Source: Patescibacteria group bacterium (GTDB taxonomy: Bacteria; Patescibacteriota; UBA1384; CAJBMM01). From it: a stretch of DNA of 64,000 bases. Position 1 is the first letter of the stretch; each line of letters opens with the position of its first letter. Positions 2,125 through 43,402 of the stretch are shown here, one piece after another. Under the pieces are notes generated by a model that had not been told where the DNA came from, made no database searches, and saw only the letters and a program-made list of their open reading frames with translations. Location of the stretch: positions 174,481-238,480 of the forward strand of contig JBAZWC010000001.1 in assembly GCA_041660565.1 (NCBI GenBank), in the 5' to 3' direction. The position numbers and the translations under genes were made by a program.

Positions 2125-2131
2125 GAGAGGG

Positions 2132-2335: not shown

Positions 2336-2379
2336 ACATCACCTCCCCCGTGATTAAATAGAACATCAGATTCGGTTCA

Positions 2380-2598: not shown

Positions 2599-2599
2599 A

Positions 2600-2746
2600 T
2601 CACCTCCCTGTGATCGAGGTGAACAGTAGGAACGCGCCAGCGAGAAGGAATGCCGCTATGACGACGCAGATGGCGATCGTCGCCACGATCCATTTGGACA
2701 GGTCGCCAACGATTGCAAGGCCGGGGTCACTGCTCGAGCTTTGCAT
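2600..2746 (-). CDS. Small GC-rich transmembrane peptide (48 aa)
   Basis: ATG at 2746 preceded by gaaaggtga SD. Single TM helix IVATIAICVVIAAFLLAGAFLLF. The upstream part of the longer ORF has no SD. Confidence 0.4.
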   Translation of the reverse strand: MQSSSSDPGLAIVGDLSKWIVATIAICVVIAAFLLAGAFLLFTSITGR

Positions 2747-2931
2747 TGCGATCACCTTTCCACGTCCACATCGGTTCGTGGAGAACTGCTTGCTCCGGGT
2801 TAACCGGCACCCGGAATGGCGACTCCCCTGCCCGTACAATCGGGGCGGGGAGAAACATCACGATCATTACAGACATGACGCATAGCATCCGACAATCCCC
2901 TTTCGCACGTCAGGTTGTTGGACAATAGCTA

Positions 2932-2971
2932 TATTATACGCCAAAAGATGGACAATGTCCATCTTCGAAAG
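2932..2971 (-). promoter_or_regulatory. 40-bp direct-repeat unit 1 containing palindrome ATGGACAATGTCCAT plus an extended -10 on the minus strand
   Basis: tattatacgccaaaagatggacaatgtccatcttcgaaag. Minus strand reads ggcgTATAAT. 35/40 identical to the unit at 3920-3959. Confidence 0.5.
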
Positions 2972-3023
2972 AAAATCGGCGGTTACGCTTCTGCGCTCCG
3001 CCGACTTTATGGAATGAGGTGTG

Positions 3024-3836: not shown

Positions 3837-3919
3837 GGCTTGATCCCTCCATTGAGTTTGTGCGATCATCGGTCAAGCGACGTGTTAAAGTGCAACAGTA
3901 CGCCAGTGGTTGATGGATT

Positions 3920-3959
3920 TATTATACACAAAAAAATGGACAATGTCCTTCTTCGAAAT
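3920..3959 (-). promoter_or_regulatory. 40-bp direct-repeat unit 2 with palindrome ATGGACAATGTCC plus an extended -10 (tgtgTATAAT on the minus strand)
   Basis: tattatacacaaaaaaatggacaatgtccttcttcgaaat, upstream of the 3024-3836 gene. Confidence 0.5.
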
Positions 3960-4651: not shown

Positions 4652-5526
4652 ACTACCAACAATGGCGTGGCGTTAAAGATTGACGAATATGTTCCCACGG
4701 TAATACCAATTAGTAGTGCTAGTACAAATCCCTTTGTACTTTCGCCACCAAGCAAGAATAGCGCCAATAACACAATTAGCACGGTTAACGAGGTGTTTAA
4801 TGATCGAGCTAGGGTTTGAGAAATTGAAACGTTAGCAACATGCTCAAAGTTACCACCCGGAGTTAACCGCAAATTCTCTCTAATTCGATCAAATACCACA
4901 ATGGTATCGTGAACAGAGAAGCCCATAATGGTTAGCAAAGCGGTGACGGTTAGACTATCCAACTCAACAAAGTCATAATATCGTCCTAGAATTGCAAACA
5001 TTCCTATTACAAATATTAAATCATGAAGCAAAGCCACCACGGCACAGATGCCAAATCGCCAAGAGTTTGCCGGCTTTGGTACTTTACGAAACGCCCAGGC
5101 AATGTAAAGAATGATAGCCAACGAGGCGATAATCACCCGCCATACCGCTTTGTTGGTTTGATCTTTGCCGATAGTTGGTCCGACCGAGGTATAAGACTTC
5201 TCAACGGTGTCTGGAATTGATTTGTTGATGGCGTCGGTAATTTGAGAATGCTGTTCGTCTGATAGCGCGTCGGTCTTAAGGATAAACCCGTTGTTGCCGG
5301 TGGTGGTGACAGATAAATTCTTCAAGTCAATTTTTGATACCGCTTGCTTTACTGCGTCTGCCGTAACCGCAGATTTGGCGGTGTATTCGATGCTGGTGCC
5401 GCTTTTGAAATCAATTCCTACTTTTACGCCATATACCGACATAAAGATAATGCCGGGAATTATGAGCACAGCCGACAGGCCAAACCATAGCCATTTATAT
5501 TTCAGTACTTGAATAGTTTTAGACAT
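4624..5526 (-). CDS. secF: Protein translocase subunit SecF
   Basis: 300 aa, six-TM SecF architecture, immediately downstream of secD. Confidence 0.85.
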   Translation of the reverse strand: MSKTIQVLKYKWLWFGLSAVLIIPGIIFMSVYGVKVGIDFKSGTSIEYTAKSAVTADAVKQAVSKIDLKNLSVTTTGNNGFILKTDALSDEQHSQITDAINKSIPDTVEKSYTSVGPTIGKDQTNKAVWRVIIASLAIILYIAWAFRKVPKPANSWRFGICAVVALLHDLIFVIGMFAILGRYYDFVELDSLTVTALLTIMGFSVHDTIVVFDRIRENLRLTPGGNFEHVANVSISQTLARSLNTSLTVLIVLLALFLLGGESTKGFVLALLIGITVGTYSSIFNATPLLVVWQNRSQKH

Positions 5527-6793
5527 GGATTAACCTTTTGAAGCGTGATATGGCTAATAATTTTAAGATTACTTGGGTTATGGTGATGGCGGTGAACAAG
5601 CTGACCAATACGCCAATCGCCAGGGTTAGGGCAAATCCTCTAATTAGCCCGGCTGTTCCCACATACAACACCAATGCGGTGATCAAAGTGGAGCTGTTGC
5701 TGTCTCTAATGCTGGTCCAGGCGCGCTTAAAACCATCGTCAATTGCTTGTAGCAGCTCTTTACCCGATCGAATTTCTTCACGCATACGTTCAAATATCAG
5801 AATATTTGCATCCACCGCCATACCGATCGACAAAATAAATCCAGCTACACCCGAAAGCGTTACCGTAACCGGCAGTAGCTTATAGATGGCAATGTTGATG
5901 AGAGTGTAAATAACCAACGCAACAATGGCAATAACGCCCGGGGTTTTATAGTAAATGACCATAAATAACATAATTAATATCATTCCTATTAACCCGGCAA
6001 GCAAACTATCTTTAAGTGATTCGGCACCCAAGGTGGCACTGATGGTTTGTTGGTTGATGATTTTAATTGGCACCGGCAAAGCACCTTGGTTTAGCTGGTT
6101 TGTTAGTTCCTTGGCAGTTTGAACGGTAAAGCTGCCCGATATAATGGCCACGCCGTCGGTGATGGCGTCATTTACGGTTGGGGTGGAAATTACCTGATCG
6201 TCTAAAACTATCGCAATCGCCTCTTTAGGATTTGCTGCTGCGGCCTTGGTGGTTGCATCAGCGAATTTTTGCTTCCCAGCGTCTTTTAACTGTAGTCGTA
6301 CCTGTGGTTCGCCGGAGATGTTATTTGAACCGCTGGAAGTGCCAAAAGTAACGCTAGCACTATCTACATCCGAGCCGGTGATAACCGTGTTGCCTTGCTG
6401 ATCTAAAAATTTAAGGTCGGGAAATTGGCCAATCTGCTTGATGGCGCCGGCAACGTCGGTTACGCCTGGTAATTCCACAATCAGGGTGGTGTCGTTGCCA
6501 CTTTTGCCTACTTGAATAGTTGGCTCGGTGACGCCGAATTTGTTAATACGATCATTGACCCGAGATTTAAGTGTGGTTAACGCCGCATCTTGTTGACTGG
6601 CGGGGATTTTGGATAGATCGGCAAGATATGTAATCTCTACTCCACCGCGTAAATCTAAGCCCTGGTGAATAAATAATGATCGTTTAAAAGAACCTAAGCT
6701 AATGTCTGGCCCGCTGGGGAGTGCAATTACCAAAGCAAACGCCGTAATAACGGCGATAAACGCAAGCCTAATGTAGAGTTTTCTTTTAATCAT
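5519..6793 (-). CDS. secD: Protein translocase subunit SecD
   Basis: GLDLRGG motif, periplasmic domain plus C-terminal TM bundle. Confidence 0.85.
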   Translation of the reverse strand: MIKRKLYIRLAFIAVITAFALVIALPSGPDISLGSFKRSLFIHQGLDLRGGVEITYLADLSKIPASQQDAALTTLKSRVNDRINKFGVTEPTIQVGKSGNDTTLIVELPGVTDVAGAIKQIGQFPDLKFLDQQGNTVITGSDVDSASVTFGTSSGSNNISGEPQVRLQLKDAGKQKFADATTKAAAANPKEAIAIVLDDQVISTPTVNDAITDGVAIISGSFTVQTAKELTNQLNQGALPVPIKIINQQTISATLGAESLKDSLLAGLIGMILIMLFMVIYYKTPGVIAIVALVIYTLINIAIYKLLPVTVTLSGVAGFILSIGMAVDANILIFERMREEIRSGKELLQAIDDGFKRAWTSIRDSNSSTLITALVLYVGTAGLIRGFALTLAIGVLVSLFTAITITQVILKLLAISRFKRLIHV

Positions 6794-8200: not shown

Positions 8201-9154
8201 TTATTCAAATTGATGCAAGGCTTTTTCCAAATCTGCCGGAAGTGGGGCGGTAAAAGTTGATCGTGTATCAGATTCGGGCAGACGAATTTCTAAAGTAGAC
8301 GCATGAAGAAATTGGCGATGCAAGCCAACCCTGGCTGATAGGTCGGAAGCTTCTTTAAAGGTATAAACTTTATCCCCCATTACCGGGTGGCCTAAATAAG
8401 CGCAGTGAACTCGAATTTGATGGGTTCTGCCGGTAATCGGTCTGGCTTCAATTAAAGTTACCTTATCCCCCTTTTTACTCCGAAGCTGTGACACAATTTT
8501 AATTTCAGTGATGGCTTCTCGACCCTTCTCTGCGGAGACTAAGGCCATTTTGCGGCGGTCATTTTGATCTCGCCCTAGAAAATTGGTTACGGTAATCTCG
8601 TCTTGCTCTAACCATCCGTAAATTAGTGCCAGATAGGTTTTTTGGGCCAAATGTTTTTGAATTTGATTTGCCAAAAAAGTCATAGCCGATTTATTTTTGG
8701 CGATTATCATTGCCCCAGATGTGTCTTTATCTAACCTGTGTACAATGCCCGGGCGCATTAAACTAATTTTACTTTCCGGATCGTAAACCGCATTCTTAAT
8801 TGTAGGATCGTAAAATATGATGCGCTGTGCTACCGAATCCTCAGTATGGCTATGTGCCGGATGAGTAATTAATCCAAATGGTTTGTTTATCACCACAACA
8901 TCGCGATTTTCAAAAATTATATCCAGGTCGGCAGATTTGGTCACGGCTATTTCGGGTTCCGAATGTTTCTGAATAGTGACGACGTCGTTGACTTGGGTTA
9001 AATAACGCGATTTGATCGGATGGTCATTAACCATCACGGCGTTGTTTTCAATAAGACCTTGCCATGTTGAGCGCGAGTTCTTAGGAAATCGCGTTGCTAG
9101 AATCTTATCCAACCTAACACCACTTTCAGCGGGTGTGACGTGAAAATTTTTCAT
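8201..9154 (-). CDS. RluA-family 23S rRNA pseudouridine synthase (RluD-like) with N-terminal S4 domain
   Basis: HRLDKDTSGAMIIAKN catalytic motif. Confidence 0.8.
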   Translation of the reverse strand: MKNFHVTPAESGVRLDKILATRFPKNSRSTWQGLIENNAVMVNDHPIKSRYLTQVNDVVTIQKHSEPEIAVTKSADLDIIFENRDVVVINKPFGLITHPAHSHTEDSVAQRIIFYDPTIKNAVYDPESKISLMRPGIVHRLDKDTSGAMIIAKNKSAMTFLANQIQKHLAQKTYLALIYGWLEQDEITVTNFLGRDQNDRRKMALVSAEKGREAITEIKIVSQLRSKKGDKVTLIEARPITGRTHQIRVHCAYLGHPVMGDKVYTFKEASDLSARVGLHRQFLHASTLEIRLPESDTRSTFTAPLPADLEKALHQFE

Positions 9155-9734
9155 ATATCTTCTTACCTAATTCGAACGCAATTAATCCAAAAAATAAGAA
9201 ACCGGCCGCAATAGAAATGATAATATGTGTCTCCGGGTAATTTTGCCAAATTACTAACAGATATTTAGTGATAGTAAGCGAGATAAAACTAAAAATAAAC
9301 GATCCAATAATAGTCCAAATTAGGAACGGCCAAAATGGCATTTGGGCGAATCCGGCAATTAGTGACGACCATGGCCTTACGTAGCCAAAGTTGCGAGTAA
9401 ACAAAATGGTAATTATCCCCCACTTGTCGTACCATTCTTTAATTCGAATTTTGGCATTTTGTAGTTTTTCGTTCCGCTCAAAGAATCTGCGGGTCTTTTT
9501 ATCTCCCCATCGGCCGATAGCGTACCCAAGTATTGCTCCAACAACGTGCCCGAAGGTAATCACTAATACGGCGTAAATATATGTAATCTCACCTTTTGCA
9601 ACCTGATTTTGAGCAATGATAAAACCAATTTCGGTAGGCAGCGGAATGCCCAGATTTTCCACTACCATCACCAAAAAAGCTCCAAACATTCCCCAACCGG
9701 AAACTAAAATTTGAATTGAATGTAGCCAATGCAT
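9126..9734 (-). CDS. DedA/VTT-family membrane protein
   Basis: LGIPLPTEIGFI motif and multi-TM profile. Confidence 0.5.
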   Translation of the reverse strand: MHWLHSIQILVSGWGMFGAFLVMVVENLGIPLPTEIGFIIAQNQVAKGEITYIYAVLVITFGHVVGAILGYAIGRWGDKKTRRFFERNEKLQNAKIRIKEWYDKWGIITILFTRNFGYVRPWSSLIAGFAQMPFWPFLIWTIIGSFIFSFISLTITKYLLVIWQNYPETHIIISIAAGFLFFGLIAFELGKKIYEKFSRHTR

Positions 9735-9738
9735 ATTT

Positions 9739-10548
9739 TTATTTCTGAATAAATAATTCGTTTTGGCGGATAAATGACATTAATAAACTATGTAAAAACG
9801 GGGTGCGAAGCTGAGATTTGTATTGCAAAACCGCTTCGTTTTTCTGATCAATTTGACCTGTGGATAAATTATATTTTAACCACTTATGATCGGCGTCAAT
9901 CAAACTTATTGGAGGTAATAAGGCATTGTTGATATTATAATCTTGCGGGCGAGGAAACGCTTTATAATGTATTAAGTACGAATAAATTTTGACATTAGAA
10001 AGTGAACTTGCTTGATTAATAACGGCCGTGCCGAGTTGGCTATGGTCGGGGTGATCATCAAACGGATCGGTTACAAAGATAATCGTTGGTTTGGTCTGAG
10101 CTAATGTTTCATTGATTGATTTCTCAAGTTGAGCAGAGTATTTTGACAGTTTGGAATCTGGATAGTTGTAAAAAGAGATGTCCGGGCTTAATACTCCTAA
10201 TATGCTTCCAGCTTTGGTGGCTTCGCTACTGCGAGTCTGTTTTAGCCCGCGCTTATTGCCATCAGTGGCAAAAATGATATTTACTTTTGCTCCTGATTCG
10301 GTGGCAGACGCAATATAACCACCAACGCCCAGGGTTTCGTCGTCCTGATGTGGGGCAAAGACATCAATAACGTCGGTTTGGGTAGGAGGTGGCATATTTG
10401 AAAATAGTTCGATAGTGGCTTGGGGTAAACTGCCAAAATAGCGAAAGTAGATTAAATAGCTAAAACCAAGAATTAGGCATATTGCAGCAACAGATCTGAC
10501 TTTACGGCTTTTAGCAAATGATGTGGCTTTGGTATGGACGGAACTCAT
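9739..10548 (-). CDS. PIG-L/LmbE-family N-acetylglucosaminyl deacetylase
   Basis: APHQDDETLG and HPDH motifs, N-terminal TM helix. Confidence 0.65.
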   Translation of the reverse strand: MSSVHTKATSFAKSRKVRSVAAICLILGFSYLIYFRYFGSLPQATIELFSNMPPPTQTDVIDVFAPHQDDETLGVGGYIASATESGAKVNIIFATDGNKRGLKQTRSSEATKAGSILGVLSPDISFYNYPDSKLSKYSAQLEKSINETLAQTKPTIIFVTDPFDDHPDHSQLGTAVINQASSLSNVKIYSYLIHYKAFPRPQDYNINNALLPPISLIDADHKWLKYNLSTGQIDQKNEAVLQYKSQLRTPFLHSLLMSFIRQNELFIQK

Positions 10549-20561: not shown

Positions 20562-20783
20562 GAATTAAAATTCACCTCACCTTCGAATTTATAATGTAAT
20601 AATAACAGATCCGCAGGACTATGTCCAGCGTATCAGATGATGGAGAATTGAGGATGGATGATGGATTATTTTCTTGTTCGAGGAGTGAAACGACGAGAAC
20701 TATCTTTGTTTCCATCCTCTATCCTCCACCCTCCGATATAAAAATGAGGCGCCCCGCGATTACTCGCGAGACGCCCAGTGCGA

Positions 20784-21176
20784 TCAGGTACGCCTTGCCC
20801 ACGCGACCATGCAGTCGCAGGTGCAGAAGTTGGCGATAGGTCGGACTCGAGTGTCGTCAGGGTAGTACGCGACAACGGAAACGTGTGCAGCGGTAAAACT
20901 GATACGACCATCGCACTCAAGACACTTGACGAATCCGTTGGGGTAGCCATTGGGGTGTGGGTTTTCGTAAATCCCAAACCACACCGTCTGTGCAATGGTT
21001 GTTGTGTCACCCGGTCTTACGAGAAGATACCCGCGTATTGAATCGAGTGTCGTCAAGGTTCCTTTGGCTTCACCGGTAACGAGCCGTCGGAGCCTAGTGA
21101 GGCAGAATTCCTTCTCAGCCGGGCCCAACTCGCTGTCTGGGATGGCCGTGGGTCGGACACGATCTCTTCGCTTCAC
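20784..21176 (-). CDS. GC-rich hypothetical Cys-rich protein (about 130 aa)
   Basis: GTG start at 21176 preceded by aaagaggtga SD. CLECDGR and FCTCDC cysteine pairs. Third gene of a three-gene GC-rich operon. Confidence 0.5.
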   Translation of the reverse strand: MKRRDRVRPTAIPDSELGPAEKEFCLTRLRRLVTGEAKGTLTTLDSIRGYLLVRPGDTTTIAQTVWFGIYENPHPNGYPNGFVKCLECDGRISFTAAHVSVVAYYPDDTRVRPIANFCTCDCMVAWARRT

Positions 21177-21231
21177 AGTTGCTTCACCTCTTTTCGTTGA
21201 TGGTTGCCGCGAGCTCGCGAAACGCCCGTTG

Positions 21232-21624
21232 TCACAAACTCTCCTCGAGCATGTCTGGGATGGTGGCGGCAATCATCCTGTCCGCATCACGTTCCAGGTC
21301 ACTCAGCTCATCCAGAATATACTCTACCACCTGATGTGACAGAGACGCGTTCCGCGGATGGTCGTTTGCATATCTGGTGAGTAACCCTATCCTGGTCGCA
21401 AGTGACTGTGCGGCCAATAGCAGAGCCGCCACATCTGCAGCGCATCGATTGAACCGGCGCGGATGGGCTTGCCTTGACTCCCTGAGGCTGGTAGATAGGA
21501 ACTCAGGCAGAGTAACCTGGCACTGAGTTGCACTCCCATCTATGGCCATCCACGATCTGACCACAAGCTGTCCCGTGGTTTCGTCGTAACCGAATCCGTA
21601 TGACGATCGTACGTTTTCTGGCAC
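21232..21624 (-). CDS. GC-rich hypothetical protein (130 aa)
   Basis: GTG start preceded by aagagga SD. Middle gene of the operon. Confidence 0.5.
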   Translation of the reverse strand: MPENVRSSYGFGYDETTGQLVVRSWMAIDGSATQCQVTLPEFLSTSLRESRQAHPRRFNRCAADVAALLLAAQSLATRIGLLTRYANDHPRNASLSHQVVEYILDELSDLERDADRMIAATIPDMLEESL

Positions 21625-21660
21625 CTGTTTCCTCTTTCTACTGGGTGCTAATATGCTTCC

Positions 21661-21969
21661 CTAGCTCCCACTCCCCCTCATTCTCATATTCAGGTATTCT
21701 TGCCCTTCAACTCGAGTCATGAGAATGTGGCGGACGTAGCTGGAGAACGACGGCGTCAAGGCGCCCGCATCCAACGCCTCTTCTGATGGCCAGAAAGCGA
21801 ACTGGAAACCAGTAAACCTATCCCAAAGCTCATCGCCTCTGGCAGGTTCGGCAGTTAGAAACACTGCCACATCTTCGATTCCGAGCTCGTCGATGGTTTT
21901 GGCCAATTCTGTGGCGAGCAGCGTGTTTCCTTCCGACACCGCGGTCACATCAATCTGAGATACTGGCAC
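21661..21969 (-). CDS. GC-rich hypothetical acidic protein (102 aa)
   Basis: GTG start preceded by agaggtga SD. First gene of the operon. Confidence 0.5.
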   Translation of the reverse strand: MPVSQIDVTAVSEGNTLLATELAKTIDELGIEDVAVFLTAEPARGDELWDRFTGFQFAFWPSEEALDAGALTPSFSSYVRHILMTRVEGQEYLNMRMRGSGS

Positions 21970-22059
21970 TTAACTCACCTCTTTTCCGCCACGGAATGTT
22001 AGTCGTAGCTTTCAATCCACCTAAATGAACTAAAAGCCACGACCAAAAAATGTTAAGAT

Positions 22060-22102
22060 ACGAAAACGATAGTATTATATCATACTATCGTTTCGTGGTC
22101 AA
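22060..22102 (-). promoter_or_regulatory. Promoter (TTGACC-17-TATAAT with TGn) overlapped by a 15-bp-arm palindromic operator
   Basis: acgaaaacgatagta-ttatatca-tactatcgtttcgt (arms match except a 1-nt indel) centred on the -10. Plus-strand ggtcaa at 22097-22102 is the -35. Confidence 0.5.
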
Positions 22103-22112
22103 GGTATTTTCA

Positions 22113-22143
22113 TATAGATTCTTAGGTCTTGCCTGGAATGACA
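22113..22143. repeat. Degenerate solo terminal repeat of the GIY-YIG element family
   Basis: tatagattcttaggtcttgcctggaatgaca versus tatagattccgggtcaagcccggaatgaca. Confidence 0.35.
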
Positions 22144-22151
22144 AGGGAGGT

Positions 22152-22716: not shown

Positions 22717-23439
22717 ATGCACTTTTGCCCCCTAAGGAGGGGCTCGCTGGCGAAGTATCGCCTTCATTTTCAAAAATTATATAATTATGAATTATTTAGG
22801 CTCAAATCTACCACAAAGGTAATGGGTCTGGTTTTGGTATTGGTCACGTTGCCCTACTCTGGCGTATTAGCAAATGGCTCCATCATTAAACCGTCAACAC
22901 CGGAATTAGTAATAACCAAATCGCCTACCGTATTGCAAATTGTGCCAGCGAAGCCACTAATTATGCCTGGGTTGAGTTTGTATCAGCAAAATCTGAACAA
23001 CGAAAAATCAAATATGGCTAATGTGTGGAAGCAATATGATGAAAAATCAGGATTAGATATTGAATCGCTTAATTACGATCAGATGTTTGGCCGGATCAGC
23101 AATTATTTAGACCATCAGGGTTCGCCGATGTCATCAATTGAAGATTTGCTGCAAATTGCATCAAAATATCAGATCGATCCGCGCTTAATAATTGGCGTAG
23201 CAGGTGCCGAGTCAACGTATGGAATACATATGCCAAGTGGTTCGCATAATCCGTTTGGGCTTGGCCCGACAAATCGCTACCTTACTTGGTCGGATGGATA
23301 TATGGCCGAAGCTCAGTTTTTGTATGATCATTTCATACAGTTTGGTGTGTTTTCGCCTTTTCAGATTGGCCCAAGCTATACCGGCACCGGTAGTCAAACT
23401 TGGGGTCAGTCTGTTTATTCCGTGATGATAAATATATAG
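22717..23439 (+). CDS. Secreted protein with glucosaminidase-like (peptidoglycan hydrolase) C-terminal region
   Basis: IIGVAGAESTYGIHMPSGSHNPFGLG resembles the glucosaminidase domain. Internal signal-peptide-like MGLVLVLVTL. Start ambiguous. Confidence 0.4.
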   Translation: MHFCPLRRGSLAKYRLHFQKLYNYELFRLKSTTKVMGLVLVLVTLPYSGVLANGSIIKPSTPELVITKSPTVLQIVPAKPLIMPGLSLYQQNLNNEKSNMANVWKQYDEKSGLDIESLNYDQMFGRISNYLDHQGSPMSSIEDLLQIASKYQIDPRLIIGVAGAESTYGIHMPSGSHNPFGLGPTNRYLTWSDGYMAEAQFLYDHFIQFGVFSPFQIGPSYTGTGSQTWGQSVYSVMINI

Positions 23440-23495
23440 GAACGCACCCGAGATGAATCTTCCGGGTGCGGTTAGCGTGTTGTTCTTCTGAACAG

Positions 23496-24146
23496 CTATT
23501 GATCTTGGGCAAGTTCTTCCACCATTCCGACATCGAATGTCGGGTTGGTATCCGCGTTGAACCAGACATAGAATCCGTAGCGGTCGAACCCTCCAACCGC
23601 AACGTGCTTATCCTTGGAAACCCCATGCCAACCCCAGTGATACCACTCGCCGAGTAGCCGCTCGTCATTGTGCACAATGCAGTTGGCGAAACAAACTGCT
23701 GTGACAACAGCTTCGTTTGCTCGCACAACACCCTTGGCGCAACGTTCAGGTTGATCTCCCCACCTATTCCTGGTGTGATTCCGGGCAAAGTTGAGCAAGT
23801 GATATCGCGGACTTCGCGATGAACATGCCCATTCATTCCCCGGCTTCAGCCACCATCTGTTTCGGTAGAAGTGTGGCTCTCGCTTTGCCCCATTAGTTCC
23901 GAAGAGCTGTCGCATGGCTGCAAGGGAAATGCCTGGATCGAACATCAACCGCCAATCCGCTTCGTTCTGCTGGTTTTGTCCGGCGCATTGCCGCAGTGTG
24001 TCAGCAGAGAAAAGAAGAAGGTCGATAGAACGCCCGAAATCCTCCTCCCCTAAAGCTTGCCGTGCTTGTTGCGCGGTTACAACCATTTCGCCACTAAGGA
24101 TCTCGATGGCCTCGTCGATATCAGTAACGTGAGTCATTCGCGTCAC
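23496..24146 (-). CDS. GC-rich hypothetical protein (216 aa), paralog of the 45943-46608 product
   Basis: aggggg SD. Shares ADTLRQC..DWRLM and NRWW..YHLLNF blocks with the other cassette protein. Confidence 0.5.
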   Translation of the reverse strand: MTRMTHVTDIDEAIEILSGEMVVTAQQARQALGEEDFGRSIDLLLFSADTLRQCAGQNQQNEADWRLMFDPGISLAAMRQLFGTNGAKREPHFYRNRWWLKPGNEWACSSRSPRYHLLNFARNHTRNRWGDQPERCAKGVVRANEAVVTAVCFANCIVHNDERLLGEWYHWGWHGVSKDKHVAVGGFDRYGFYVWFNADTNPTFDVGMVEELAQDQ

Positions 24147-24286
24147 CCCCCTGTCGTTGATCTGGCGAGTATTTTGTTTGGTGCTGAGGATATTGTAGCA
24201 GAATTTACATAAATAGATACTATCCTATCCGACTTTTAACTAATAACCCCATCAGATGAAATATCAGAAAAATCCTTCAATTTGGG

Positions 24287-28602: not shown

Positions 28603-29018
28603 GTCATTCCGGACTTGATCCGGAATCTATATAAAAAAATGTATAATTAATGCTGTATGAGCAAGTATTATTATGTTTATATTCTAGCTAGTTGCAAAAA
28701 TGGTACTTTATATACTGGAGTAACAAACGACCTGATAAAAAGAGTATATGTACATAAAAACAAATACAGCCAAAAAGGCTTTACGACAAAATATGGAATT
28801 TGCCTTCTTGTTTATTATGAAATGACCGAGGATGTGAATAGCGCTATTGCCAGAGAGAAACAAATCAAAAACTGGCATAGATCATGGAAAATCCAACTTA
28901 TTAAAAGTAAAAACCCAGACTGGAAAGATCTGTATGAGGAAATTTGTATATAGTCTGTCCCGAAGTGCGCTCGGGGTTGTTTGTTTTATATAGATTCCGG
29001 ATCAAGTCCGGAATGACA
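28603..29018. mobile_element. GIY-YIG nuclease gene flanked by perfect 32-bp terminal inverted repeats (element copy 1)
   Basis: Left tgtcattccggacttgatccggaatctatata (28603-28634). Right arm (28987-29018) is its exact reverse complement. Each TIR folds as a ccgga-N-tccgg hairpin. Confidence 0.7.
28657..28953 (+). CDS. GIY-YIG nuclease family protein (UPF0213-like)
   Basis: YYVYILASCKNGTLYTGVTNDLIKRVYVHK GIY-YIG motif, 98 aa. Confidence 0.8.
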   Translation: MSKYYYVYILASCKNGTLYTGVTNDLIKRVYVHKNKYSQKGFTTKYGICLLVYYEMTEDVNSAIAREKQIKNWHRSWKIQLIKSKNPDWKDLYEEICI

Positions 29019-29020: not shown

Positions 29021-29641
29021 TTAGAATTTCCGGATTACGCCTTTAACTTTTCCTTGCACGGTGACGTTTTTGGTTAGAATTGGTTTCATGGTTTTGTTGG
29101 CTGGCTGCAGGCGGATGTGCGTTTTCTCTTGATAAAATCGTTTAAGCGTAACGTTTTCGCGATCAATTAACGCCACCACAATATCGCCATTTTTAGCCAC
29201 TGTGGTTTGCTCAATAATGACATAATCACCATCAAAAATGCCGTCTTCGATCATTGAATTACCTTTAACTCGTAGTGCGAACACTTTTGGCCCCATCATA
29301 TCGCGTGGGATATCAATAGTCTCATGGGTTCGAACGGCTTGGATGGGTGCACCGGCGGCAATGATGCCCATTAAAGGAGCCGAAAAGCTTTGTTCGTCCC
29401 AAGTTGGGGTTAGCTGTAGTGAGCGTGCTTCGTTGGCTTCGCGGTTTAGATATCCTTTATTAGTTAAACTGTCGATGTGCTCGGCCACGGTGGCAACGCT
29501 AGACAACTTAAAATAATCGGCGATTTCGCGGTAGCTAGGCGCGTAGCCGTTCTCTCCGATGAATTGCTCAATATAGTCCAAGGTTTGTTTTTGTCGTTTG
29601 GTTAATGGATCCATTTGTCCTCCCGATTCTACATCCAGCAT
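29021..29641 (-). CDS. lexA: LexA repressor (S24 peptidase)
   Basis: N-terminal wHTH, KGNSMIEDGIFDGDYVII catalytic Ser/Lys region. Confidence 0.8.
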   Translation of the reverse strand: MLDVESGGQMDPLTKRQKQTLDYIEQFIGENGYAPSYREIADYFKLSSVATVAEHIDSLTNKGYLNREANEARSLQLTPTWDEQSFSAPLMGIIAAGAPIQAVRTHETIDIPRDMMGPKVFALRVKGNSMIEDGIFDGDYVIIEQTTVAKNGDIVVALIDRENVTLKRFYQEKTHIRLQPANKTMKPILTKNVTVQGKVKGVIRKF

Positions 29642-30678: not shown

Positions 30679-30704
30679 TTTTAATTAAATAAAATTATGG
30701 TATA

Positions 30705-30860
30705 GTTTTGCCATCCTCGGCTAGTTTAGCCAACCGTTGCTGAAGCCGCGTTTTCGCGCGGTGGAAGAGTTGGCGCCTACCAGTTTCTGGTGGGTAGTGT
30801 CATGGCATCAACTGAGTTCAAGCATGCCGTTGAGTCTTGAATCCTAAGTAGTCGGGGGTG
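30705..30860 (+). ncRNA. Candidate structured non-coding RNA immediately upstream of the reverse transcriptase (possible retron msr/msd-type template RNA)
   Basis: GC-rich untranslated stretch after an extended -10 (tggtatagt). Hairpins ccgcg-ttttcg-cgcgg, ccag-ttt-ctgg and ggggcgag-N8-ctcgcccc. No ORF with SD. Confidence 0.3.
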
Positions 30861-31907
30861 ATCGAAGGGGCGAGGACGTTCTCTCGCCCCTTGTACCTTA
30901 CATCGAAAGGTGGTGATCTGGAGTTGAGCTATGGCTTACGACCAACCGAAGCGGCTGATTGGCTGATTCGCCGCTGTGAATTACCGCGGGAGTGGCGAGG
31001 TTACTTGGCCAGTGTAGTTGTTAAGCCGAGTAGCCAGTTTTACCACCAGTGGCAAATGCCGAAGAAAAACGGTGGATATCGGGTGATCCTGTCGCCGCTT
31101 GAACCACTGAAATCCGTTCAACGCCAGATTCTTCGCCACGTGCTGTGTGACCTAAGGATTTCGAGTGCGGCACACGGATTCGTAGGTGGTAGAGACATCA
31201 TTACTAATGCTCTACCCCATCTTCAGTCTCACTCCATGCTTGGTCTAGACTTGGCGGACGCATTTGGTAACGTCTGGCTTGGTTGGATGGCGTATCGTGA
31301 ATCGCCTAGGAAGACCACAGGACTAAAACTGGGTTTGCATCTGGACACTTGGCAGGCACTGTTGCCGTTTATCAGTTATGTGGACGATGATGACGGGATT
31401 CTGCCACAAGGCGCACCAACGTCGCCGGCGATTTTCAATGCAATGTGTTGTCGAATGGACACAATGCTGCTGAAACTTGCCAAAAACGTGGGCGGAGTGT
31501 ACACACGCTACGCCGACAACCTGACCTTTTCGATGCCAGGACCTTCAGTGGGGCAAAAGTTGATCAACGCAATCTTGCGTATTGTTGATGACGATGGTTT
31601 CCCACTGAATGATGACAAAACGCAACTACTACGCAGTGCCAACAACTTTAACCGGCCACTGCGCCTGCCAGGGCTGAACATCATTAATGGCCAACTAGTT
31701 CTGCCCGCCGACACACTAAAGCGCTTTCGTAGCGCTATGTACCGCGCTGGTCAGGACAGTTGCAGTGATGATGACGAAGTGCGCGATCATGCACGTCGAT
31801 CGCGTAGAGGCATCAAGGGATACGTCATTCGCATCTACGGCGAGTTGCCGCCACAACTACGTGGCATGTACGAAAAAGGACGCATACACGCGTCCGAAGA
31901 GACCTGA
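30858..31907 (+). CDS. Reverse transcriptase, retron-type (RT domain only, 349 aa), motif C reads YADN instead of YADD
   Basis: Motifs in order: KKNGGYRVI, ITNALPH (NAxxH), LGLDLADAFGNV, LPQGAPTSPAIFN, VYTRYADNLTF. GTG start. Alternative starts are possible. Confidence 0.75.
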   Translation: MIEGARTFSRPLYLTSKGGDLELSYGLRPTEAADWLIRRCELPREWRGYLASVVVKPSSQFYHQWQMPKKNGGYRVILSPLEPLKSVQRQILRHVLCDLRISSAAHGFVGGRDIITNALPHLQSHSMLGLDLADAFGNVWLGWMAYRESPRKTTGLKLGLHLDTWQALLPFISYVDDDDGILPQGAPTSPAIFNAMCCRMDTMLLKLAKNVGGVYTRYADNLTFSMPGPSVGQKLINAILRIVDDDGFPLNDDKTQLLRSANNFNRPLRLPGLNIINGQLVLPADTLKRFRSAMYRAGQDSCSDDDEVRDHARRSRRGIKGYVIRIYGELPPQLRGMYEKGRIHASEET

Positions 31908-31937
31908 TCCCCTACTGTCCGGACTGGGTGGTGGGGG

Positions 31938-31965
31938 TTCTTTTTATATAGATTCCGGACTCGAG
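31938..31965. repeat. Partial or degenerate GIY-YIG-family terminal repeat
   Basis: tatatagattccggactcgagtcc then diverges. Confidence 0.3.
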
Positions 31966-31977
31966 TCCAAATCTAGC

Positions 31978-32015
31978 GGGCGGACACATGGGTCCGCCCC
32001 TACGGAGGTCGTGGC
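31978..32015. repeat. GC-rich hairpin repeat, copy a
   Basis: gggcggacacatgggtccgcccctacggaggtcgtgg, 8-bp stem gggcggac/gtccgccc. Copies at 49139-49205 and 63646-63710. Confidence 0.5.
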
Positions 32016-32026
32016 ACGTGTCATAA

Positions 32027-33301
32027 TCAAGCAGATAGGCGTTCTTGCAGTACCGGTAAGAGCTCGTCGATGTAGATATTATCTTGCAAGCCCGAAACCA
32101 TATCTCGCATAATAATGTGGCCGTTGATTGCCTCTTTCTGCCCAATGATTAAAGTAATGCGGGCACGCAGTCTTTCAGCAATTTGCAGTTGCTGTGAAAT
32201 GCTATCGCTTTCGGTGGCGGTAGTGGCCGAAAAACCGGCATTGTACAATTGTTGTAACAGGGGGATTGATCTTGATTTGGCTTGCTCGCCAAGCTGGGCA
32301 ATAAACACCTGAATACCCTCGGTATCAGGTAAACTAGCGTGGGCATTTTCCAAAAACTGGCTGAATTGTTGCAGATTAAAACTAAGCCCAATGGCCGTTA
32401 GCGGTTGTTCGGCAAGTTGCGAGGCAAAGTTATCATAGTGAAATCCGATTACCGACGGCACCGCTTCATCCCCTACTTTTAAGCCAAAAATGGTTTGCTC
32501 CGCCTCTTCATCGGCAGTGTAAAGGTTCGGATTGACATCATAATTGATGCCCAGAATATCGCAGGTTTCCAGTACGCCGGTAAGCTGATTGTGGCAACTT
32601 AAGCACAAATTATCCAGTAATTGTGGCATTTTGACTAGCCATTCCGCTTTGCTGTCTAACTCGCAATTTGAGATATTTTGAACGGTTGGATTTTCTTTGC
32701 ATCTTGGGCACAGATCGCTGATGTGTGGGTGGACTTGCGATTTGAATAACAGATCAAAATTGGGCCGGCATTTGGCGCATCCGTTGCTGTGCAGCATAAT
32801 TACCGGTTTTTTGAGCTTTAGATCGCACGCCAGCTTTTGTAATAACATTAGGAGCGTGGCGTTGGTGGTAGCATCTTTGGCGCCGATGACATCAAAACAG
32901 TAATAATAATTTTCGACAAATGCGTCGTCTAGCTTTCGCATCGTATTTACTTGATAAGCCAGGTGGACCGGCGGCGGCCAGTGTAAAAAGCCGTTTTCTT
33001 TGTAGCTGCGCATTAAACTGACGCGTGGATGAGCGCGCAAAACATAATGTTCGTCGTTGCTGATCATCTGAGCATCAATAAGTTGATTTTGCCAGTCTTT
33101 GGAGAACGCTAGGTCGTACAATGATTTTGATTCGATTGGTGGGGTGATGACGCGGTGATAGCCAAACGACTGAGATAAATGATCAAGAATGGAGATACTT
33201 AGTTGCCAATAGCGCTGTGAATCCGGTAAAATATCGCTTAATCCTTTTGGATTACGGTACTTGAACGGTGGTTCGACTATTTCATTACTATTTATACGCA
33301 T
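32027..33301 (-). CDS. Histidyl-tRNA synthetase-like protein with degenerate class II catalytic motifs and a CxxC..CxxC insertion
   Basis: N-terminal KGLSDILPDSQRYWQ resembles HisRS. LRAHPRV replaces LRPEGT, motif 2 arginines absent, motif 3 reads GFHYDN instead of GGRYD. C-terminal anticodon-binding-like ITLIIGQKEAINGHIIMRDM. Confidence 0.55.
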   Translation of the reverse strand: MRINSNEIVEPPFKYRNPKGLSDILPDSQRYWQLSISILDHLSQSFGYHRVITPPIESKSLYDLAFSKDWQNQLIDAQMISNDEHYVLRAHPRVSLMRSYKENGFLHWPPPVHLAYQVNTMRKLDDAFVENYYYCFDVIGAKDATTNATLLMLLQKLACDLKLKKPVIMLHSNGCAKCRPNFDLLFKSQVHPHISDLCPRCKENPTVQNISNCELDSKAEWLVKMPQLLDNLCLSCHNQLTGVLETCDILGINYDVNPNLYTADEEAEQTIFGLKVGDEAVPSVIGFHYDNFASQLAEQPLTAIGLSFNLQQFSQFLENAHASLPDTEGIQVFIAQLGEQAKSRSIPLLQQLYNAGFSATTATESDSISQQLQIAERLRARITLIIGQKEAINGHIIMRDMVSGLQDNIYIDELLPVLQERLSA

Positions 33302-33441: not shown

Positions 33442-33470
33442 TTGACATAAATATATTATCGGGGTAGAAT
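33442..33470 (+). promoter_or_regulatory. Promoter TTGACA-17-TAGAAT for the GC-rich cassette gene
   Basis: ttgacataaatatattatcggggtagaat, followed by a ggggggagga SD. Confidence 0.45.
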
Positions 33471-33511
33471 GTTCTTGCGTTATCACACGCTGGGGGGAGG
33501 ATATAACGGAA

Positions 33512-33949
33512 ATGAGGTTTCAGGAAACGGTCAAAATGCCGGTTCCAGAAGCGGTGACTATCCCACCGGTTTCCGGGTGGGCTGACATCGTACAGCACAG
33601 TGATAAGAGCATATGTCGCTTGTACCTGGCGGTGACTAGTGCTTCTGATGAGCCGGCAATGTGCGGCAAGGACGTTCTGTACAGGATGAGTCTCAATTGT
33701 AAGACGAGCCACTGTGCGGGCTCGGCGCATGCCGCCTGGCTTCTGGAATGCCCAGAGTCCCGGATTCCGGTTGAATGGCAGCAGGCTAAGCATCTCTTCT
33801 TCCTGAGGGAGGTGTGGGGAGATGAGCAGGGTTACTTGCATGTGTTGGTTGCCCAGCCTGAAGAAGCCGGGAAGTGGACCTTCGGCTATCTAGCCGACTT
33901 CGGCGCCGCCTTGATGGGTCCGCGCGATTGGGTGGTGATGATCGATTGA
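33512..33949 (+). CDS. GC-rich hypothetical protein (145 aa)
   Basis: ATG preceded by a ggggggagga SD. GC-rich coding between AT-rich flanks. Confidence 0.45.
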   Translation: MRFQETVKMPVPEAVTIPPVSGWADIVQHSDKSICRLYLAVTSASDEPAMCGKDVLYRMSLNCKTSHCAGSAHAAWLLECPESRIPVEWQQAKHLFFLREVWGDEQGYLHVLVAQPEEAGKWTFGYLADFGAALMGPRDWVVMID

Positions 33950-34022
33950 CGCCGCCCCTATCCCCCGTTCCGAGGACAACTTGGATCGGGGGAAACTATT
34001 TTTCAATGAATGAATATAAATA

Positions 34023-36500
34023 TTATATGACCATTTCTAGTTCGTCTGAAGTGCGACGAATTAGGACGGTTTTGTTTGGGTTAATTTTTCCCATCAACAC
34101 ACCATCGGCAATTTTATCTTCAATTAAAGTTTGAATAGCGCGGCGAATTGGGCGCGCCCCGTTTTTGGGCTCAAAACCTTTTTCGGCCAGATATTTTCGG
34201 GCGGTTAGGTCAATTTGTAGCTTAATCCCCTTCTCATTCAATCTGGTTAAAAGTTGATTAACTTGGATATCTACAATTTGGCGGATATTTTCCGGCGTTA
34301 AGGGCTTAAAAACAATTGCTTGATCTATTCGGTTTAATAGTTCGGGTTTCATTAGTACCTTAAGTTCTTTGAGCAATTTATCCTTAAGTTGATCATAAGA
34401 TTGGCTGGAGTTTGCGGAATTAAAACCAATTTCGGCATGATGCGTTAGTTCGTCTAGTCCGATGTTGCTGGTCATAATAATAATCGCATGACGAAAATCA
34501 ATCTTGCGCCCCTTGGTATCGGTGATAAACCCATCCTCTAAAATTTGTAATAGAATGTTAAAGGTATCTGGGTGGGCTTTTTCAATTTCATCCAGTAAAA
34601 CCACGCTATATGGATGTCGTCGAATAATTTCGGTTAGTTTGCCGCCTTCTTCGTAACCAATATATCCGGCGGGTGCCCCAATCAACCTAGAAACATTATG
34701 CTTTTCCATAAATTCGGACATATCAATTTTAACTAACGCGTCATCTTTGCCATAAACGCGTCTAGCAATCACCCGCGCCAGCTCTGTCTTGCCCACCCCG
34801 CTTGGCCCAAGAAAGATAAACGAACCAACCGGCCGGTTTGTCTGGCTAATGCCGGTACGCGAGCGCTTGATGGCATTTGAGACGGCAGAAATGGCTTCGG
34901 TTTGCCCGATTATCTCTTTGGCAATAATGGTCTCAATATTTTTGATTTGATTTAATTCGGTTTTGGCTAAAGTTGAGGTGGGGGTGTCGGTGATTTGCGC
35001 CACAGTTTTTTCGATGTCAGAAACGCTTACTAGCGGTTGTCTTGCACTGCTAACTCGATTGTAATTTTTTATCTGATTGTCTATTTTGACAATCTGTTTT
35101 TGTAACTGGTCTGCCACATCGTATCGCTCTTCAAATACGGCGCGATCTTTCTCTTCGGACAACTGATCTTTTTGTTTAATTAAGTTGATCACGCTGGTTT
35201 TTTGGCGCTGATGCATCCGCACGTCGGCTGCGCTTTCATCTAACAAGTCGATCGCCTTGTCTGGCAAAAATCGCCCCGTAATGTACCGAGTGGACAGATT
35301 AACCGCTGCTTCAATGGCTTCGTCGGTAATAGTGACTTGATGATGTTTTTCGTAATTTGCTTTAAGCCCGTGCAAAATTTTGATAGTATCTTTGGGCGTT
35401 GGCTCGGCCACGATAATCGTTTGAAACCGACGCGTTAGTGCCGCATCTTTTTCGATGTGTTTTTGAAATTCATCCAATGTGGTGGCGCCAATCAACCGAA
35501 TTTGACCTTTGGCCAGTGCCGGTTTCAATATCTGTGAAGCGTCTAGCGAGCCTTCGGCGCTACCGGCGCCAATAATGGTGTGTAGCTCGTCGATAAAAAT
35601 GATGCAGTCATTTAATTTGGTAATAGAGTTGATGAATTTTTTGATTCGTTCTTCAAATTGGCCGCGATACATCGTACCCGCCACCATTAGCGATAAATCT
35701 AAATTAAGTACTCTAAAGCCATTGAGGGCGGACGGCACATCGCCATTCGCGATTCGCTGTGCCAATCCCTCTACAATAGCGGTTTTCCCCACCCCGGGTT
35801 CGCCAATAAGCACCGGATTGTTTTTGGTGCGGCGGGATAATATTTTAATTACTCGGTCAATTTCAATTTCGCGGCCGATAACCGGGTCTAGCTCGCCTTT
35901 TCTAGCTTGATCTGTAAGGTCGGTGGCGTAAAGTGCGGCCGGGCTGTTAGCAGATTTCCGGGTTTTGGCGCTAACCGGATCGTCGGGCTGGTTTTGATTA
36001 AATTCAAAATCGTTATCCATATCAAAATTGATGCGGTTTACTCGATCTAATTCCTCAAACAGATTATTGATGTTGGTGGTAATGTTGTCTGGGTTGCCAG
36101 CGCACTCTGAGACTAGCTTATATGCCGAGTTTTCCTTAAACGATAACGTTGCTAACAACAGATGCTCGGTGTCTAGGCCAACATGCCCAAGGGTGGCGGT
36201 TAACTGCATCGCTTTTTCCAAAACGTTAATCAGATCTTTGGTGACCATCGACTTTGGGTCGCTTTGCTCCGCTAAATCATTTTTATGCGCGTTTAGGTAC
36301 TCATCGGCCTTGGTTAGGGTTAAGCCGTTATTGATTAAGACACCGTGTGCCAATGAATCCGGCAATATAAGCAGCGCAAGAATAATATGATATGTGGCTA
36401 AAGGCACATTATTTGCCATAGCGATTTCTTGCGCTTTGATTAACACATCGCGGGTGCTGGGGCTAAATTTTGAAAATTGATCTTCTTGCATATTTGCCAA
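34023..36500 (-). CDS. clpC: ATP-dependent Clp protease ATP-binding subunit ClpC-like (Clp_N plus two AAA+ modules)
   Basis: Two Walker A motifs (GEPGVGKT, GPSGVGKT), N-terminal Clp repeats. Confidence 0.8.
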   Translation of the reverse strand: MANMQEDQFSKFSPSTRDVLIKAQEIAMANNVPLATYHIILALLILPDSLAHGVLINNGLTLTKADEYLNAHKNDLAEQSDPKSMVTKDLINVLEKAMQLTATLGHVGLDTEHLLLATLSFKENSAYKLVSECAGNPDNITTNINNLFEELDRVNRINFDMDNDFEFNQNQPDDPVSAKTRKSANSPAALYATDLTDQARKGELDPVIGREIEIDRVIKILSRRTKNNPVLIGEPGVGKTAIVEGLAQRIANGDVPSALNGFRVLNLDLSLMVAGTMYRGQFEERIKKFINSITKLNDCIIFIDELHTIIGAGSAEGSLDASQILKPALAKGQIRLIGATTLDEFQKHIEKDAALTRRFQTIIVAEPTPKDTIKILHGLKANYEKHHQVTITDEAIEAAVNLSTRYITGRFLPDKAIDLLDESAADVRMHQRQKTSVINLIKQKDQLSEEKDRAVFEERYDVADQLQKQIVKIDNQIKNYNRVSSARQPLVSVSDIEKTVAQITDTPTSTLAKTELNQIKNIETIIAKEIIGQTEAISAVSNAIKRSRTGISQTNRPVGSFIFLGPSGVGKTELARVIARRVYGKDDALVKIDMSEFMEKHNVSRLIGAPAGYIGYEEGGKLTEIIRRHPYSVVLLDEIEKAHPDTFNILLQILEDGFITDTKGRKIDFRHAIIIMTSNIGLDELTHHAEIGFNSANSSQSYDQLKDKLLKELKVLMKPELLNRIDQAIVFKPLTPENIRQIVDIQVNQLLTRLNEKGIKLQIDLTARKYLAEKGFEPKNGARPIRRAIQTLIEDKIADGVLMGKINPNKTVLIRRTSDELEMVI

Positions 36501-37907: not shown

Positions 37908-38126
37908 ATTTTTCTCCTCTTATATATGTATTATATCGCATATTAGCGTTTAAAAAAGCGGGCGATTGTCATCGTCCACTAACAGAAGTATATCAAAAGT
38001 ATCGACTCTTGTCAAACACTATCAGTTAAAGATGATGATATCTATGGCAAATATTTGTAAATAGTGGTATAATCATAATGTTCAGCTTAGCTGAAAGTAC
38101 ACTTCACAGAAGGGGGAGCGAAAATC

Positions 38127-38663
38127 GTGGCGATTGATGTTGAGCTCAATCCGTTGCTTTCCGACCCGTGTTATCGCGGGCGCGCAATGCGAATGGCGCG
38201 TCGGATTACGGGTAATCCAGACGACGCTGAGGATGTTGCTCAATGCGTGATGCTCAGGGCGTGGCGGGCAAATCCGCAGAATCTAAGGAGTCCAGAAGCG
38301 TGGATGACGTGTATCACTCGTCGTGTGGCACTCGATCGTATTCGCGCCAACAACAATCGGCGCAAGTATCTAGGCATTGCGGTCAGCTTGGATGAGGTGT
38401 GGGAAGGTAACGACACCCTCGTACGCCAGTTAGCGGACTTCACTCAAGATCCGGCGCAGATAATCGAAGACCGCGTAATCGACGATCGCCTACACAATGC
38501 CTTATTGGTGGTGCCGCAGATGTTTCGCGCGCCATTCACTATGCACGTTGTCGGCGGAATGTCATACGACGACATCGCCCAAAAGCTGGGTATCCCGATT
38601 GGAACGGTCAAGTCTCGTATCAATCGGGCGCGGACGATCTTGCGCGGACAGCTCAGCGCTTAG
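38127..38663 (+). CDS. ECF-type sigma-70 family sigma factor, GC-rich cassette
   Basis: Region 2 DAEDVAQCVMLRAWR and region 4 MSYDDIAQKLGIPIGTVKSRINRAR. GTG start preceded by gaaggggga SD. Extended -10 tggtataat upstream. Confidence 0.7.
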   Translation: MAIDVELNPLLSDPCYRGRAMRMARRITGNPDDAEDVAQCVMLRAWRANPQNLRSPEAWMTCITRRVALDRIRANNNRRKYLGIAVSLDEVWEGNDTLVRQLADFTQDPAQIIEDRVIDDRLHNALLVVPQMFRAPFTMHVVGGMSYDDIAQKLGIPIGTVKSRINRARTILRGQLSA

Positions 38664-38724
38664 TAGCCCTTTGCCGGAACATCGGCAAGGGGCTTCATTT
38701 TTGCAAATTTTCAACCTCGCAGAA

Positions 38725-39450
38725 CTATTTTTGATTTGTCAGGCGCATCCACAGAATCAAAATAAACATTTTTGGCAAAGCCAGTTGACGCTTAAAACGC
38801 TTTGGTTCGTGAACTAACCGCCACAACCACTCAAAACCGGCATTGCGCCAAGCTAGCGGCGGACGCTTTTTTACCCCGGCTAAATAATCAAACGTACCAC
38901 CAACACCCATCATTACCGGTACATTAAGCTCATTTTTATGTTGATGAATCCAGATGTCTTGTTTTGGGGCGCCCCAGGCAATCAGTAAAATGGACGGTTG
39001 ATGACGGAGGATGGTGGGGATAACCTCGGGATCGTCTGGTGAGCCTTCGTAAACCCCGGCAATTTTTAAGGTTGGATGTTCGGTGGTCCATAGATCGGCT
39101 ACTTTTTGTGCAACGCCGTTTCGGCCGCCCAGTAAAAAGATGGAAAATCCTTGCTCCGCTGCCATTTTAGCGATGAACTGGGTTAAATCGACACCAGTAA
39201 TGCGAGATGGAATCGGCTGATGTAGTAGTTTTGCCGCTAACACAATTCCCGCACCATCGGCTACGCTAATATCGGCCGAATTTAGAGTTGCCTTAAATAA
39301 TGGGTTGTGGCGCGCCTCCATCACAAATTCGGTGTTAACGGTGCAGATTTGATGTGGGGTTTTTGAGTCCACAAATCGGTGCACCTGCGCCAATATCTGG
39401 TCAAGCGTTAATAGGTCTATTTTAATGTCCAAAATGGAACATTTTATCAT
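38725..39450 (-). CDS. WecB/TagA/CpsF-family glycosyltransferase
   Basis: GVDLTQFIAKMAAEQGFSIFLLGG pattern of the WecG/TagA family. Confidence 0.6.
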   Translation of the reverse strand: MIKCSILDIKIDLLTLDQILAQVHRFVDSKTPHQICTVNTEFVMEARHNPLFKATLNSADISVADGAGIVLAAKLLHQPIPSRITGVDLTQFIAKMAAEQGFSIFLLGGRNGVAQKVADLWTTEHPTLKIAGVYEGSPDDPEVIPTILRHQPSILLIAWGAPKQDIWIHQHKNELNVPVMMGVGGTFDYLAGVKKRPPLAWRNAGFEWLWRLVHEPKRFKRQLALPKMFILILWMRLTNQK

Positions 39451-41128: not shown

Positions 41129-41139
41129 CCCGATTATGT

Positions 41140-43384: not shown

Positions 43385-43402
43385 GAGTATAATTAGAGTT
43401 AA

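Follow-up and report, generated by a model that had tools for sequence, protein, structure and literature searches.

What fills the 1590-bp spacer between the genes hit and rpsU in a 64,000-nucleotide stretch of a Patescibacteria genome (contig JBAZWC010000001.1, positions 174,481 to 238,480; hereafter the window), and where did it come from? The spacer contains a three-gene unit on the minus strand, here called the cassette, and is flanked by hit, rpsU, yqeY, ybeY, dgk, ftsA, ftsZ and eno; hit encodes a HIT family protein (Pfam E 1.5e-24) and has its stop at 22152. No phage genes lie around the cassette, and PHROGs gave no matches. Read along the minus strand, the unit consists of a promoter set in a palindrome, a leader hairpin, three tiled open reading frames (ORFs) and a terminator, and the evidence firmly supports a genuine transcription unit that is complete in itself and was acquired horizontally. 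An earlier note on this stretch had described a repressed three-gene operon; its description of the sequence is borne out with small corrections, and the terminator and leader hairpin are added here.

The three ORFs are ORF1 (21661..21969, minus strand; 102 aa), ORF2 (21232..21624, minus strand; 130 aa) and ORF3 (20784..21176, minus strand; 130 aa), encoding the proteins P1, P2 and P3; P1 is deposited as MFA6081967.1, hypothetical protein (WC773_00935). Their combined coverage of the unit is 87%; dinucleotide shuffles gave 24 ± 19%, and 0 of 2000 attained the observed figure. Each begins with a GTG located 4–7 nt past a ribosome-binding site (RBS) of the AAGAGG(TGA) type, with an identical 12-mer, GAAAAGAGGTGA, ahead of ORF1 and ORF3 and AAAGAGGAA ahead of ORF2; the motif GAGGTGA is also the RBS of rpsU, both here and in relatives. 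The codon-position composition is coding-like (GC1 > GC2 < GC3, G1 0.34–0.41), and the GC content of the ORFs is 0.54–0.56 compared to a window mean of 0.44. These results agree with the coordinates, Shine-Dalgarno sites, GTG starts and GC richness given in the earlier note. Its choice of the GTG at 21176 as the start of ORF3 is also better supported than the TTG at 21272, which would give a 162-aa ORF; of the three genes, ORF3 is the least certain.

By comparison of its FtsA, the host is a relative of the Saccharibacteria. A first scan of genome contigs with FtsA alone returned nothing, and an FtsA alignment then gave a ‘Candidatus Saccharibacteria’ metagenome-assembled genome (MAG; L004), which was compared with our locus together with a syntenic metagenome contig (L002); FtsA identity is 71% and 82%, respectively. 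The gene order in both relatives is eno – SLT-like – p240 – hit – rpsU – yqeY – ybeY – dgk – ftsA – ftsZ, and the spacer between hit and rpsU measures 222 bp in the MAG and 135 bp in the metagenome contig, against the 1590 bp observed here. Since hit and rpsU are near-adjacent in both relatives, the cassette represents a lineage-specific insertion, and the comparison of neighbours proposed in the earlier note finds it absent from both syntenic loci; the neighbouring island at 23496–24146 is likewise absent. The linkage of cassette and flanks is not an assembly artefact, because the separate assembly of SRR18595301 in Logan matches at 100% identity along 12.2 kb that include the cassette and the flank on each side.

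Both relatives carry extra genes of their own at other intergenic positions of this block, some of them GC-rich: D-Ala-D-Ala dipeptidase-like (VanX-like), adenylosuccinate-lyase-like and CheR-like genes in the MAG (2171–2974, 5265–6647 and 9042–9887), and two orphan ORFs in the metagenome contig (4860–5321 and 5446–5811). The Logan assembly is in short contigs (L001, L005 and L006; ~24388, ~28630 and ~41100–45400), and the contig end near 24388 adjoins the island at 23496–24146, which could reflect strain-level variation at island borders.

The composition of the cassette sets it apart from the genes on either side. Genes of the window fall into two classes, core genes and those of GC-rich islands, comprising the cassette and about nine others, with island genes amounting to about one in five genes of the window. 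GC content at third codon positions (GC3) is 0.30–0.48 in the core class and 0.54–0.68 in the island class, lysine makes up 6.7% versus 2.4% and arginine 3.8% versus 7.8% of residues, and start codons are ATG in the core class and mostly GTG in the islands. The cassette ORFs have a GC3 of 0.58–0.60, against 0.30–0.48 for the core, and an R/(K+R) ratio of 0.78–1.0, against ~0.37. The synonymous-codon log-likelihood ratio per codon, +0.09 to +0.18 for the ORFs of P1–P3 and -0.08 to -0.29 for core genes, places all three with the islands. In the earlier note a toxin, stress or mobile-element module had been envisaged; an accessory or mobile origin fits the foreign composition and the absence from two relatives, whereas direct support for a toxin or stress role was not found.

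The other GC-rich islands lie at 2051–3901, 23351–24201, 30701–32251, 33451–34101, 38051–38801, 45801–46751, 47601–49101, 53601–54651 and 58751–59651, and hold mostly orphan ORFs (e.g. at 3024, 23496, 45787, 48410, 53674 and 58788). They share with the cassette its composition class, GTG starts and position between core genes, and in most of them a near-consensus sigma-70 promoter stands at the leading edge; they differ from it in that they have no sequence similarity to it and that the promoter palindrome is a different one in each island. Among their contents are a retron-type reverse transcriptase (30858–31907, plus strand; PADLOC RT_XIII 5.9e-59, Pfam RVT_1 3.2e-18) in the island at 30701–32251, and an extracytoplasmic function (ECF)-type sigma factor (38127–38663, plus strand; Sigma70_r2 and r4_2) with its own promoter at 38044–38073 in a GC-rich, Arg-rich island. 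The island orphans at 23496–24146 (minus strand) and 45787–46608 (plus strand) are paralogues (30% over 143 aa, E 2e-9). Two small, stand-alone proteins with a GIY-YIG domain (28657–28953 and 40788–41099, both plus strand) are 70% identical and are encoded in AT-rich DNA (GC 0.32–0.35).

At the upstream edge of the unit, TTGACC-17-TATAAT on the minus strand (22102..22074) forms the promoter read in the earlier note; it is of the sigma-70 type, its -10 is extended by a TG, and it matches at 11 of 12 positions. It starts 50 nt past the hit stop and gives a predicted transcription start at ~22067. Across the window, TTGAC-N16–18-TATAAT was seen three times, against 0.2 expected. A near-perfect 38-bp palindrome (22060..22097, both strands) extends over the promoter's spacer, -10 and predicted start; it is a putative operator with arms ACGAAACGATAGTA and TACTATCGTTTTCGT on either side of an 8-bp centre, and the 1-nt indel reported earlier between the arms is present as one extra A. 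Its central 30 bp form a loopless repeat, centred at 22078/22079, in which 14 of 15 pairs match. The window has two palindromes of such quality, one at 22079 and the other at 49049, where 0.04 would be expected in first-order random sequence; the inverted repeat in the cassette promoter is present and non-random. Its fold energy is near equal on the two strands (-17.5 and -17.0 kcal/mol), which fits a protein-binding site in double-stranded DNA. No second copy of the half-site was found within the 64-kb window, which suggests a dedicated regulator, and a scan of IMG/VR with the palindrome returned nothing. That the palindrome is a repressor operator is, judging from the sequence, plausible but unproven. 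The earlier note had called it a classic operator over the -10: the element is indeed non-random, strand-symmetric and overlapping the -10, but the candidate helix-turn-helix (HTH) repressor that would go with it was not found in the profile libraries searched.

The main alternative is that this palindrome serves not as an operator but as a terminator or insulator hairpin of hit, or is incidental or recombination-related, with the cassette expressed constitutively from its strong promoter. Located 55 nt past the hit stop, it would fold, in the RNA of any hit transcript that reads through, into a hairpin of 15 bp, and no other terminator of hit was called; the stem, however, is AT-rich, has no U-tract directly after it and was not called as a terminator either. 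The missing repressor and the likeness of the only other palindrome of this quality (49029–49068) to a bidirectional terminator both favour such a role, which has to be set against a symmetry centre coinciding with the -10 of a promoter that matches at 11 of 12 positions, and against a stem of Watson-Crick pairs only, whereas the true RNA hairpin of the leader contains G-U pairs. We consider this explanation unlikely and retain the putative operator. The element at 49029–49068 is itself a 40-bp palindrome with 19 of 20 pairs matched (AAACAAACAACCCTGTCTAA/TTTGACAGGGTTGTTTGTTT); it lies between convergent genes, contains TTGACA and is probably a bidirectional terminator.

Downstream of the promoter, the 5′ untranslated region contains a 22-bp RNA hairpin (21999..22046, minus strand). 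The sense strand folds at -29.0 kcal/mol (z -9.3) and the antisense strand at -9.9 kcal/mol, a strand specificity that arises because six of the pairs are G-U, and which shows the hairpin to be an RNA-level structure of the operon transcript. It is likely an mRNA stabiliser or a regulatory element.

At the other end, an intrinsic terminator (20776..20747, minus strand; the whole element 20738..20776) begins 8 nt past the ORF3 stop and consists of a 13-bp stem with 9 G-C pairs followed by the T-run CATTTTTAT. Between ORF2 and ORF3 (21207–21232, minus strand), the sequence GGGCGTTTCGCGAGCTCGCG repeats the 5′ arm of this terminator (GGGCGTCTCGCGAG) and holds CGCGAGCTCGCG, a palindrome of 12 nt without mismatch; internal processing or attenuation could take place here. 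The extra DNA also holds a 108-nt imperfect hairpin (20631..20738, both strands; -42.5 and -38.4 kcal/mol, z -5.6 and -3.5), single-copy in the window, which separates the terminator from the rpsU promoter and may or may not belong to the cassette. The rpsU promoter, TGGACA-17-TATTAT (20599..20627, minus strand), is a boundary feature outside the operon.

This boundary corrects one point of the earlier description. The short palindrome GGACTATGTCC, which had been placed at 20612–20622 and assigned to the distal end of the operon, is found at 20616–20626; there it is past the terminator and falls on the -35 of the promoter that serves rpsU, which places it outside the operon. Its relation to the operator of what was called island A holds, as it resembles the palindromic -35 regions of two duplicated island-A promoters (TTTCGAAGAnGGACATTGTCCAT...TATAAT). 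The two copies of this ~35-nt module, each with its -35 in a palindrome, lie on the minus strand at 2933–2968 and 3921–3956, and a perfect 21-bp palindrome, AAGATGGACATTGTCCATCTT, occurs in one of them at 2941–2961; one copy drives the ORF at 3024–3836 and the other the small hydrophobic ORFs at 2600–2839, 2380–2598 and 2132–2335. A 47-aa ORF with a strong GGAGGA RBS (20572–20715, minus strand) starts inside the 108-nt hairpin, crosses the rpsU promoter and ends 11 nt ahead of the rpsU start; it is probably spurious, and could be a leader peptide.

P1 is acidic (isoelectric point (pI) 4.3) with one lysine, P2 is acidic (pI 4.9) with none, and P3 is basic (pI 8.8), Cys-rich and has four lysines; arginine is far above lysine in all three. 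No membrane segment was detected in any of them, and from their sequences they are predicted to be small cytoplasmic proteins. P3 contains the paired cysteines pointed out earlier (CLEC and FCTCDC), read from the translation as C85-x2-C88 ... F117-C-T-C-D-C122. Its only profile match, a weak one, is to DUF7576, with an E-value of 0.0086 and 16.4 bits against a Pfam cut-off of 27, and neither a significant profile nor a matching fold for TRASH/zf-FCS was obtained for residues 85–126. Modelling with AlphaFold and searching with Foldseek, as had been suggested, gave a confident model for P2, unlike P3: from the single sequence, the best AlphaFold2 (AF2) model has a predicted local distance difference test (pLDDT) score of 80.8 and a predicted template modelling (pTM) score of 0.62 (the other four have pLDDT values of 50–66), and depicts a three-strand beta-meander followed by three helices that include a long hairpin. 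This predicted fold has no significant match in the PDB or BFVD.

Searches for relatives of the three proteins were uniformly negative. P1–P3 have no significant match in Pfam, PHROGs, NCBIfam or PADLOC, and no toxin or antitoxin family and no ribbon-helix-helix (RHH), HTH, AbrB or PhD fold was recognised in these libraries or among PDB sequences, where P1–P3 match nothing. In PADLOC-DB v2, with the neighbouring retron reverse transcriptase serving as the positive control (5.9e-59), only a helical stretch of P2 aligned with JetA, which is not significant (E 0.0036, 14 bits). Each protein matches only itself among 5.8 billion clusters, P1 and P2 by word-indexed search only, so that very remote relatives may be missed; a full phmmer search of P3 against 1.84 billion representatives returned itself and two repeat-protein artefacts. 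Compared by tblastn, phage records (50,697) and plasmid records (72,556) yielded no supported match; scans of IMG/VR with the three proteins yielded nothing, and none of them has a paralogue within the window. One candidate, a tail-region protein of phage NatCom_17901 resembling P1 (database E 0.09, 40% identity over 86 aa with 12 gaps), was rejected, as no PHROGs or Pfam tail family matched. The earlier note had held that homology to ordinary metabolic enzymes would speak against its interpretation, and no such homology, nor any other detectable relative, emerged from any search.

On balance, and with moderate confidence, we favour a reading in which an acquired, self-contained cassette, moron-like but chromosomal, sits in the hit–rpsU spacer of a Saccharibacteria-like genome under a putative operator, its cargo guessed to be of the conflict type. 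Several findings weigh against it. At the cassette, no integrase, transposase, target-site duplication or terminal repeats were found. In Pfam, NCBIfam, PHROGs and PADLOC, the cassette proteins have no repressor or DNA-binding domain and no recognisable toxin, antitoxin or defence domain, and for P1 and P2 the large-scale search had the limited reach described above. No homologous locus was found in which conservation of the palindrome could be compared, and with no homologue, purifying selection on the ORFs has no comparison. P1 and P2 share a frame and are parted by a single TAG and 12 codons, and so could be one broken gene; P3 was not called by the Logan gene caller, and AF2, given this one sequence, produced a model too poor to use (pLDDT 36). 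We note also that no tRNA adjoins the cassette.

The shared frame of P1 and P2, the uncalled and poorly modelled P3, and the lack of any homologue in the searches of 5.8 billion clusters and of 1.84 billion representatives would also be expected of inert or decaying foreign DNA, in which the ORFs are remnants (for instance of one TAG-broken gene now read as P1 and P2) or go untranslated. Such DNA would, however, hardly be expected to retain three intact ORFs with strong, well-spaced RBSs, two of which lie in identical 12-mers, nor a tiling far above chance between an intact promoter and an intact terminator; P2, moreover, has its own RBS despite the shared frame and folds confidently from its single sequence. 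We therefore regard decay as improbable.

Less probable still is an ancestral origin followed by separate losses in the relatives, in place of a gain here: only two relatives enter the comparison and small symbiont genomes shed genes readily, but the cassette is missing from the closer relative as well as from the more distant one, its composition is atypical for the genome, and each genome has lineage-specific genes of its own in other slots of the conserved block. Least probable of all, the locus could encode a structured non-coding RNA or be under SOS control by LexA. RNA genes often account for GC-rich islands where a genome is AT-rich, the leader hairpin is strong, and lexA is 7 kb away; against this, Rfam returned nothing, whether at gathering score or with E ≤ 1, codon periodicity and RBSs point to coding, and LexA is an unlikely regulator, its own upstream region having no copy of the half-site. 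The LexA homologue (29021–29641, minus strand; LexA_DNA_bind and Peptidase_S24) has its likely start at an ATG at ~29614 and a TTGACA upstream, and no clear palindromic SOS box was recognised upstream of it.

Returning to the acquired cassette, its parts suggest how it might operate. The extended -10 promoter would drive a leader with the 5′ hairpin followed by P1–P3, and the strong terminator would stop transcription before rpsU. A dedicated dimeric or tetrameric repressor bound to the 38-bp palindrome would keep the strong promoter off, most simply through autoregulation by a cassette product. The best candidate for an autorepressor may be P3, with its basic N-terminal arm and possible zinc-ribbon, although this is a guess from charge and Cys motif. 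Equally tentatively, and with low confidence, the cargo could be a conflict-type module (toxin-antitoxin-like, defence or anti-defence), a guess prompted only by the control architecture and by the sibling islands, with a retron reverse transcriptase among their genes. Going further, one could imagine an undescribed three-component conflict system of episymbiotic Saccharibacteria, made of three new families, with a new beta-meander/helical-hairpin fold in P2 and, in P3, a zinc-ribbon autorepressor acting on the 38-bp operator; it would belong to a genome-wide set of GC-rich cassettes with promoters of their own, exchanged at slots between core genes without dedicated recombinases, e.g. by natural transformation; we hold this to be a long shot.

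Taken alone, the cassette is one more lineage-specific orphan operon, of a common kind. Its interest lies in being a clean example of the GC-rich, Arg-rich, promoter-equipped insertions between core genes, of which each relative carries different ones. If the cargo has conflict or host-interaction functions, such cassettes would offer a compact entry to the flux of accessory genes in ultra-small episymbionts, and the promoter with its palindrome would then be an easily testable regulatory part.

Three kinds of known system invite comparison. By eye, the C-terminus of P3 is like the TRASH/zf-FCS/YHS modules, with the pattern C-x2-C-(D)G-x-I ... F-C-[ST]-x2-C-x3-aromatic and the weak DUF7576 match. 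The spacer in TRASH modules is 19–22 residues long, whereas in P3 it is longer (29 residues), and no significant profile accompanies it. Autoregulated type II and tripartite toxin-antitoxin operons (e.g. omega-epsilon-zeta, paaR-paaA-parE) likewise consist of small proteins, some of them acidic, have an inverted repeat over the promoter, which in those operons serves autorepression by the antitoxin or regulator, and show a patchy accessory distribution; the cassette differs in having no detectable toxin, antitoxin, RHH, HTH or AbrB protein, and its sizes and gene order match no known family.

The closest parallel is with the morons of phages of the HK97/HK022 type, defined by their own promoter and terminator, deviant GC content and an insertion point between two genes that lie side by side in related genomes (PMC3594210). 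All of these features recur in the cassette, which differs from phage morons in lying in a cellular chromosome by ftsA/ftsZ, not in a phage or prophage, and in comprising three genes. Its promoter, furthermore, lies under a long palindrome, which suggests repression and not expression from a silent prophage. The cassette thus has every defining feature of a moron except residence in a phage or prophage, and is an ordinary kind of lineage-specific accessory insertion, an orphan member of a familiar kind.

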